From: Escherichia coli
GTDB lineage: Bacteria; Pseudomonadota; Gammaproteobacteria; Enterobacterales; Enterobacteriaceae
Assembly (NCBI RefSeq): GCF_003334815.1
Contig: NZ_QOWO01000045.1
DNA: 28,560 bases
Reading direction: 5' to 3' (one strand)
In this document: in pieces, positions 398-1,352 of the stretch
Layout of the letters: every line of letters begins with the position of its first letter
How positions within the stretch are numbered: the first letter of the stretch is position 1
Program-made: the position numbers and the translations under genes
Notes under the pieces: generated by a model
Databases searched by the model: none
What the model saw: only the letters and a program-made list of their open reading frames with translations
Told to the model about the DNA's origin: nothing

Positions 398-894
398 TGC
401 CTCCATCATTACGAAAAGCCGTTGCTGCTGCTATTGGTGGCGGAGCAATTGCTATAGCATCAGTGTTAATTACTGGCCCAAGTGGTAACGATGGTCTGGA
501 AGGTGTCAGCTACGTACCATACAAAGATATCGTTGGCGTATGGACTGTATGTCACGGACACACCGGAAAAGACATCATGCTCGGTAAAACGTATACCAAA
601 GCAGAATGCAAAGCACTCTTGAATAAAGACCTTGCCACTGTCGCCAGACAAATTAACCCGTACATCAAAGTCGATATACCGGAAACAACGCGCGGCGCTC
701 TTTACTCATTCGTTTACAACGTGGGTGCTGGCAATTTCAGAACATCGACGCTTCTTCGCAAAATAAACCAGGGCGATATCAAAGGCGCATGTGATCAGCT
801 ACGTCGCTGGACATATGCTGGCGGTAAGCAATGGAAAGGTCTCATGACTCGTCGTGAGATTGAGCGTGAAATCTGTTTGTGGGGTCAGCAATGA
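397..894 (+). CDS. R: SAR endolysin (lysozyme with N-terminal signal-anchor-release domain), phage 21 R-type
   Basis: 165-aa ORF. The N-terminus [18 protein letters not shown] is a Gly/Ala-rich weakly hydrophobic SAR-like segment; size and position right after the pinholin match R21 / RrrD. Confidence 0.8.
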
Positions 895-1352
895 ACAGAG
901 TAACCGCGATTATCTCCGCTCTGGTTATCTGCATCATCGTCTACCTGTCATGGGCTGTTAATCATTACCGTGATAACGCCATTACCTACAAAGCCCAGCG
1001 CGACAAAAATGCCAGAGAACTGAAGCTGGCGAACGCGGCAATTACTGACATGCAGATGCGTCAGCGTGATGTTGCTGCGCTCGATGCAAAATACACGAAG
1101 GAGTTAGCTGATGCTAAAGCTGAAAATGATGCTCTGCGTGATGATGTTGCCGCTGGTCGTCGTCGGTTGCACATCAAAGCAGTCTGTCAGTCAGTGCGTG
1201 AAGCCACCACCGCCTCCGGCGTGGATAATGCAGCCTCCCCCCGACTGGCAGACACCGCTGAACGGGATTATTTCACCCTCAGAGAGAGGCTGATCACTAT
1301 GCAAAAACAACTGGAAGGAACCCAGAAGTATATTAATGAGCAGTGCAGATAG
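891..1352 (+). CDS. Rz: Rz i-spanin (inner-membrane spanin subunit)
   Basis: ATG at 891 overlaps the R stop (ATGA) and gives 153 aa. N-terminal transmembrane helix followed by a coiled-coil-like charged region. The track ORF 879-1352 carries four extra N-terminal codons. Confidence 0.8.
1111..1293 (+). CDS. Rz1: Rz1 o-spanin lipoprotein, embedded out of frame inside Rz
   Basis: 60-aa ORF wholly inside Rz in another frame. Lipobox LVVVGC with the Cys after a signal peptide, and a proline-rich stretch [15 protein letters not shown]. Confidence 0.75.

Follow-up and report, generated by a model that had tools for sequence, protein, structure and literature searches.

The window analysed here, a stretch of 28,560 nucleotides of Escherichia coli DNA whose coordinates are used throughout, carries near its beginning a phage lysis cassette that starts with a holin gene and ends with the overlapping genes Rz and Rz1, the overall gene order being holin, endolysin, Rz/Rz1 and bor. 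The features on which the following description relies are:

1-158: end of an IS10/ISVsa5 element (IS4 family), with the final 37 transposase codons (32-145, plus strand) and the terminal repeat as far as 158
182-397, plus strand: holin of the EssD / phage-21 S type, 71 aa (phrog_9876, 1.5e-37; phrog_20, 2.2e-31; essD in strain 52F4)
397-894, plus strand: endolysin, a lysozyme of the RrrD / phage-21 R type, 165 aa (phrog_7, 4.8e-69; rrrD in strain 52F4)
891-1352, plus strand: Rz (i-spanin) gene, 153 aa, with ATG at 891 and stop codon TAG at 1350-1352
1098-1103, plus strand: Shine-Dalgarno sequence of Rz1, AAGGAG, as read from the sequence, lying within the Rz coding sequence 7 nt before the ATG at 1111
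1111-1293, plus strand: Rz1 (o-spanin) gene, a 60-aa prolipoprotein, with ATG at 1111 and stop codon TGA at 1291-1293
1111-1170, plus strand: Rz1 signal peptide and lipobox, with residues 1-19 holding K3, K5 and a hydrophobic core, then V17-V18-G19 and Cys20 (TGC, 1168-1170)
1185-1187 and 1344-1346, plus strand: codons of Rz Cys99 and Cys152, read from the sequence; the third cysteine of Rz is Cys14
1195-1218, plus strand: Cys29 of Rz1 (codon 1195-1197) and its intact pentaproline P32-P36 (1204-1218)
1352-1377: perfect 11-bp hairpin (GAGTTGCCCAT/ATGGGCAACTC) directly after the Rz stop codon, in the 31-bp gap between Rz and bor
1384-1677, convergent to Rz: bor, whose protein is identical to lambda Bor

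Successive genes of the cassette overlap by their stop and start codons, in the form TAATG between holin and endolysin and ATGA (891-894) between endolysin and Rz, the endolysin stop being in the latter case shared with the Rz ATG. The holin begins with M-K-S-M, in-frame ATGs lying at both 182 and 191, and we take this to be the dual-start arrangement of the phage 21 S gene, which would yield antiholin and holin. The lysis region as a whole (182-1677) is a mosaic, its holin and endolysin being of the phage 21/DLP12 type and its Rz, Rz1 and Bor identical or nearly identical to those of lambda. The hairpin separating Rz from bor has a minimum free energy of -20.5 kcal/mol (z = -4.7 relative to 200 shuffled sequences); it is not followed by a run of T and was therefore not called by the terminator scan, and it may mark the transcript ends of both genes or act as a stability element of their messages.

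The Rz protein is identical to its lambda counterpart at 151 of 153 residues in a protein alignment, and the 462 nt of the gene differ from lambda at only three positions, all of them before nt 53 of the gene. In Pfam, its residues 29-153 align at 3e-54 with the whole of model PF03245 (Phage_lysis; Bacteriophage Rz lysis protein; model positions 1-126), and in PHROGs the protein matches over its full length the family phrog_13, annotated as 'Rz-like spanin', at 1.2e-78. By contrast with these matches, no NCBIfam model reached its cutoff for either Rz or Rz1, the sole hit being a sub-threshold PspB match on the transmembrane segment of Rz. According to its Kyte-Doolittle profile, Rz has a single hydrophobic segment, located at the N-terminus: the 19-residue mean peaks at 2.43 in the window starting from residue 4 and exceeds 1.6 only for windows starting at residues 1-8. 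This places the transmembrane domain at about residues 4-24 (nt 900-962), followed by the periplasmic domain, and Rz would, on the model of lambda, be a type II inner-membrane protein, N-in/C-out, that has one N-terminal helix. The columns corresponding to Cys99 and Cys152 are invariant in an alignment of 22 Rz sequences.

Rz1 is read in the +1 frame relative to Rz with an offset of 220 nt and lies wholly within it, as an earlier note on this DNA had described. The 60 residues of the protein are all identical to those of lambda Rz1, the alignment that this note had proposed as a check, and the entire overlap of the two genes is nucleotide-identical to lambda. Rz1 also matches Pfam PF06085 (Lipoprotein Rz1 precursor; 3.7e-20, residues 20-59) and, over its full length, phrog_3198, another family annotated as 'Rz-like spanin' in PHROGs (1.5e-29). 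A promoter and terminator consensus scan of positions 1-2000 gave about as many matches as expected from shuffling, and it pointed to no internal promoter of Rz1.

The lipobox string LVVVGC pointed out in the same note occupies residues 15-20 of Rz1. It was evaluated with a PROSITE-style rule for prokaryotic lipoproteins (PS51257 type), which asks for K or R within the first seven residues, six uncharged residues, the motif [LIVMFWSTAG]2-[LIVMFYSTAGCQ]-[AGS]-C and a cysteine at positions 15-35. Rz1 of the window passes this rule with its cysteine at position 20. In E. coli, an aspartate at position +2 after the lipid-modified cysteine retains a lipoprotein in the inner membrane, according to the Lol sorting rule. 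Cys20 of Rz1 is followed by T21 and S22 at +2 and +3, without the Asp retention signal, which predicts an outer-membrane localisation for the mature protein. The proline-rich character ascribed to the mature region is likewise borne out, 10 of its 41 residues (20-60) being proline. In lambda Rz1 the signal sequence comprises residues 1-19 and the lipid is carried by Cys20, while Cys29, which forms the homodimer disulfide, and residues of the proline-rich region are functionally important (PMC5295617).

The mere occurrence of an open frame of this length inside Rz is of little value as evidence. When the Rz protein was held fixed and its codons were shuffled synonymously in 20000 trials for each of two schemes, an open reading frame of at least 60 aa appeared in the +1 frame in 6611 trials drawn from the codon usage of the window (33%) and in 9280 trials in which the codons of Rz itself were permuted (46%). 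An open +1 frame is thus common among synonymous versions of Rz, and the existence and length of the Rz1 frame do not testify to coding. Such a frame with, in addition, a classical lipobox among the first 35 residues was obtained in 0.9-1.2% of the shuffles, a figure that has to be read as conservative since the Rz protein leaves little freedom at two out of three bases. The natural Rz gene has 5 stop codons in the +1 frame versus 16 in the +2 frame. The statement of the earlier note that the two-frame coding here is real consequently stands through the identity of Rz1 to the lambda protein and its conservation across phages, but not as something demonstrated by the presence of the open frame, given its frequency in the shuffles.

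Conservation was assessed with lambda and 20 further phage loci from GenBank, the latter ranging from 32 to 86% in Rz identity and including Stx phages, SfI, ES18, ST104, HK022, P22, Klebsiella phages, a siphovirus from bat faeces and the Pseudomonas phage phi3, which gave 21 other homologues at 32-99% overall. An embedded +1 lipoprotein frame was present inside Rz in all 21, down to the most distant at 32% Rz identity. The lipoprotein rule was passed by all 22 sequences, that of the window included, with the cysteine at position 19 or 20 counted from the ATG. In the 21 other Rz1 homologues the residues at +2/+3 are TS, GS, SS, KS or VS, Asp never occurring at +2. A Shine-Dalgarno-like purine run (AAGGAG, AAGGAA, GAGGGAG, CCGGAG or CAGGAA) precedes the frame at a matching distance in almost all of these 21, the weakest run being the GAGAGAA of locus L083.

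The distribution of variation by codon position, which had also been proposed as a check, was examined in a codon alignment of nine closer sequences. The mean pairwise difference at the third position of Rz codons falls from 0.339 before the overlap to 0.142 inside it and rises again to 0.352 after it, these values being raw pairwise differences that ignore phylogeny in sequences that are mosaic and recombining. Inside the overlap, the most variable class of sites in this alignment is the first position of Rz codons, which is the third position of Rz1 codons. This pattern is the signature that would be expected if purifying selection acted on both reading frames. A separate set of 80 near-identical viral contigs (97-100%), too close for codon-position analysis across lineages, was used for intactness and site density only: every one of the 80 has both Rz and Rz1 intact, and the number of variable sites per nucleotide is 0.118 before the overlap, 0.027 inside it and 0.068 after it. 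Conservation of the embedded frame in relatives, on which the earlier claim had been made to depend, was thereby found in every homologue and every contig of the two sets. As far as sequence comparison can supply it, the proof of dual coding comes from three things together: Rz1 is identical to a proven gene, has a lipobox and is conserved across distant phages.

The public annotation of these loci is less consistent than the sequences themselves. Among the divergent phage records, 18 come with annotation and all 18 contain the +1 frame, but only five annotate it (AP005153, ES18, ST104, P22-pbi and Tbat2_3) and 13 omit it. The PGAP/RefSeq annotation of E. coli 52F4 similarly lists rzpD and not the embedded Rz1 gene, which is an omission and not evidence of its absence.

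Taken together, the genes at 891-1352 and 1111-1293 are almost certainly the Rz and Rz1 genes of a lambda-type two-component spanin in its embedded architecture, and nothing in the sequence evidence contradicts this identification, which is also the arrangement that the earlier note had recognised. The characters by which such a system is recognised were found in both proteins: an N-terminal transmembrane domain and Rz homology on one side, a prolipoprotein signal devoid of Asp at +2 and a proline-rich mature region for Rz1 on the other. They extend to the nesting in the +1 frame, the association with a holin/endolysin cassette, the cysteines C99 and C152 of Rz and C29 of Rz1 and the conserved embedded frame. 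In lambda, the lipoylation of Rz1, its outer-membrane location and its role in lysis have been established experimentally (PMC5295617 and references therein), and the same cysteines form the disulfides of the Rz and Rz1 homodimers (PMC5295617).

By extension from lambda, Rz1 would be translated independently, from its own Shine-Dalgarno sequence and ATG inside Rz. Rz would be anchored in the inner membrane by its N-terminal helix and expose a helical domain to the periplasm, and each subunit is expected to form disulfide-linked homodimers, through C99 and C152 for Rz and C29 for Rz1. Binding between the C-termini of Rz and Rz1 would then yield a complex spanning the periplasm through the meshes of the peptidoglycan. 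Once holin and endolysin have destroyed the murein, this complex would collapse and fuse the inner membrane with the outer one, by which lysis is completed, on the model described for lambda (PMC5295617).

The capacity of this pair to act in the present strain is a different matter, considering the state of the prophage in which it is located. From position 159 to at least 25000, where the query ended, the window matches E. coli strain 52F4 with 100% identity, and in this strain the corresponding DNA forms the right end of a lambdoid prophage in decay, abutting ybhB, the bio operon, uvrB and the moa operon. The gene for the large subunit of the terminase breaks off at about 5016 and is followed directly by a tail-tip fragment (about 5015-5779), and a truncated fragment of lom (5849-6232) is in frame with a tail protein gene, forming a single open reading frame of 1185 codons (5849-9406). 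Head genes are absent from the degraded prophage region, where signs of decay are found over 4138-9406. With such truncations and losses virions can no longer be made, the lysis cassette nevertheless being intact.

Two side observations concern the gene content of this region. On the minus strand at 11942-14406, in the interval separating the tail-fibre genes of the prophage from chromosomal ybhB, two genes with overlapping stop and start codons encode a 525-aa AAA ATPase (PADLOC PDC-M01A, 1.5e-202; PtuA, 6e-185) and a 296-aa HNH nuclease (PDC-M01B, 8e-112), a module that looks like a Septu-like anti-phage defence pair. Beside it, also on the minus strand, an open reading frame of 419 aa (10119-11378), annotated in 52F4 as a hypothetical protein of 410 aa, had no match in PADLOC and may be further cargo of the prophage.

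Only 23 nt separate the IS10/ISVsa5 end from the holin ATG at 182 downstream of it, and the 3' end of the element's transposase gene reads toward the lysis cassette. At the corresponding site 52F4 has uninterrupted prophage sequence, and the upstream region there carries the quuD antiterminator gene. This difference between otherwise identical sequences suggests a recent insertion, which probably uncouples the cassette from phage late transcription. As the element separates the cassette from the region that carries quuD in 52F4, expression of the lysis genes in the present strain is uncertain. Rz and Rz1 could on these grounds be genuine and intact genes that are now a silent relic without a current role, in a prophage that has decayed and whose cassette has been cut off from its late transcription by IS10, and we regard this as a serious possibility, though one with somewhat less than an even chance. 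The truncated terminase and lom genes, the loss of the head genes and the position of the insertion speak for it. On the other hand, all four lysis reading frames are intact and Rz/Rz1 has so few differences from lambda, which indicates either recent acquisition or purifying selection; read-through from the cassette-facing transposase gene is conceivable; and for the homologous lysis operon of the DLP12 prophage in K-12, transcription and an effect on the production of outer-membrane vesicles have been reported (PMC7918800). This reading is compatible with the identification of Rz/Rz1, as it concerns their activity and not their identity.

The opposite view of the same observations is that the spanin pair, together with the holin and the endolysin, has been kept for use by the host, in modulating the release of outer-membrane vesicles or the turnover of the cell wall, which is what has been proposed for DLP12 of K-12, and that the cassette is perhaps driven by read-through from the insertion sequence since the arrival of IS10 and not by the phage late promoter. 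We consider this improbable, none of the present observations speaking for such a role.

The identification of Rz as a spanin subunit has itself to be weighed against the product names inherited in GenBank and RefSeq, such as 'prophage endopeptidase RzpD', according to which Rz would be a murein endopeptidase acting on the links between peptidoglycan and outer membrane and not a membrane-fusion protein. These names are all that favours such an activity, and no peptidase family was matched by Rz in Pfam, NCBIfam or PHROGs. A sequence search of the PDB with Rz found no solved relative and only weak matches, all of them to ATP synthase subunit b, a long alpha-helical protein; this points to a domain that is helical and not enzymatic. 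Moreover, lambda genetics maps the function to the coiled coils, the linkers and Rz1's proline-rich region, in agreement with the membrane-fusion model (PMC5295617). We thus rejected the endopeptidase, whose label is historical, as very unlikely. Least credible of all, and rejected as far as sequence analysis goes, is the possibility that only Rz is a gene and the embedded frame a chance opening or an artefact of the ORF caller resembling a lipoprotein: the frequency of such frames among the shuffles and their absence from many phage annotations and from that of 52F4 would fit it, but Rz1 is 100% identical to an experimentally proven protein (PMC5295617) and matches the Pfam Rz1 family, its frame recurs at the same place in every homologue including the distant Pseudomonas phage, third-position variation of Rz is suppressed only within the overlap, and the Shine-Dalgarno sequence is strong and optimally spaced.

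The pair described here as a spanin is therefore already known, being the classic embedded spanin genes of lambda; it is real but ordinary. The nesting of one gene out of frame inside another is classically exemplified by Rz/Rz1, and this copy, identical to lambda over the overlap, adds little as a discovery. It can be used as a positive control: if a scan picks up the pair, it has rightly found true dual coding. It also serves as a reminder on annotation practice, considering how regularly the embedded o-spanin is left out, from most of the annotated divergent phage records (13 of 18) as well as from the RefSeq annotation of 52F4.

Among known systems, the closest is lambda itself (NC_001416, Rz 45966-46427 and Rz1 46186-46368), which shares with the window the sizes of 153 and 60 aa, the +1 nesting with an offset of 220 nt, an identical Rz1, a nucleotide-identical overlap and a convergent bor encoding an identical protein. 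The lambda record annotates both genes at these relative positions, and K-12 has its DLP12 homologues rzpD and rzoD annotated likewise. The three nucleotide changes within the first 53 nt of Rz include two that alter the protein, S2N and C18Y, at the N-terminus and in the region of the transmembrane domain. Lambda differs by having its own S and R genes in place of the 71-aa holin and 165-aa lysozyme of phage 21/DLP12 type, and it is an active phage, whereas the pair in the window belongs to a defective chromosomal prophage.

The second comparison is with rzpD/rzoD (b0556/b4510) of the DLP12 prophage in K-12, whose gene names RefSeq has given to 52F4, the near-identical strain. DLP12 shows the same nested pair and the order essD-rrrD-rzpD/rzoD-borD-ybcV, but differs from the window by 15 nt in Rz and by the GTG start codon of RzpD. 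RzoD of K-12 (locus L105, 2828-3010) departs from Rz1 of the window and lambda by L2R and by P34R, the latter within the pentaproline, at the one position reported to tolerate substitution in lambda (PMC5295617). The two prophages also occupy different sites, DLP12 being located at 564755-586056 of NC_000913 and the prophage of the window abutting ybhB and bioA.

More distant relatives, represented by P22 (gene 15/Rz1), ES18, ST104, HK022, the Stx phages and the Pseudomonas phage phi3, differ from the window in their Rz identity of 32-86% and in an Rz1 of 61-68 aa counted from the ATG preceded by a Shine-Dalgarno sequence, and the Rz1 proteins of the HK022 and P22 type are devoid of the second periplasmic cysteine. 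They have in common with the window an embedded +1 lipoprotein frame with its cysteine at about position 19-20, and this cysteine is followed in their Rz1 by a proline-rich segment with a PPAW, PAAW or PPPPAW motif.
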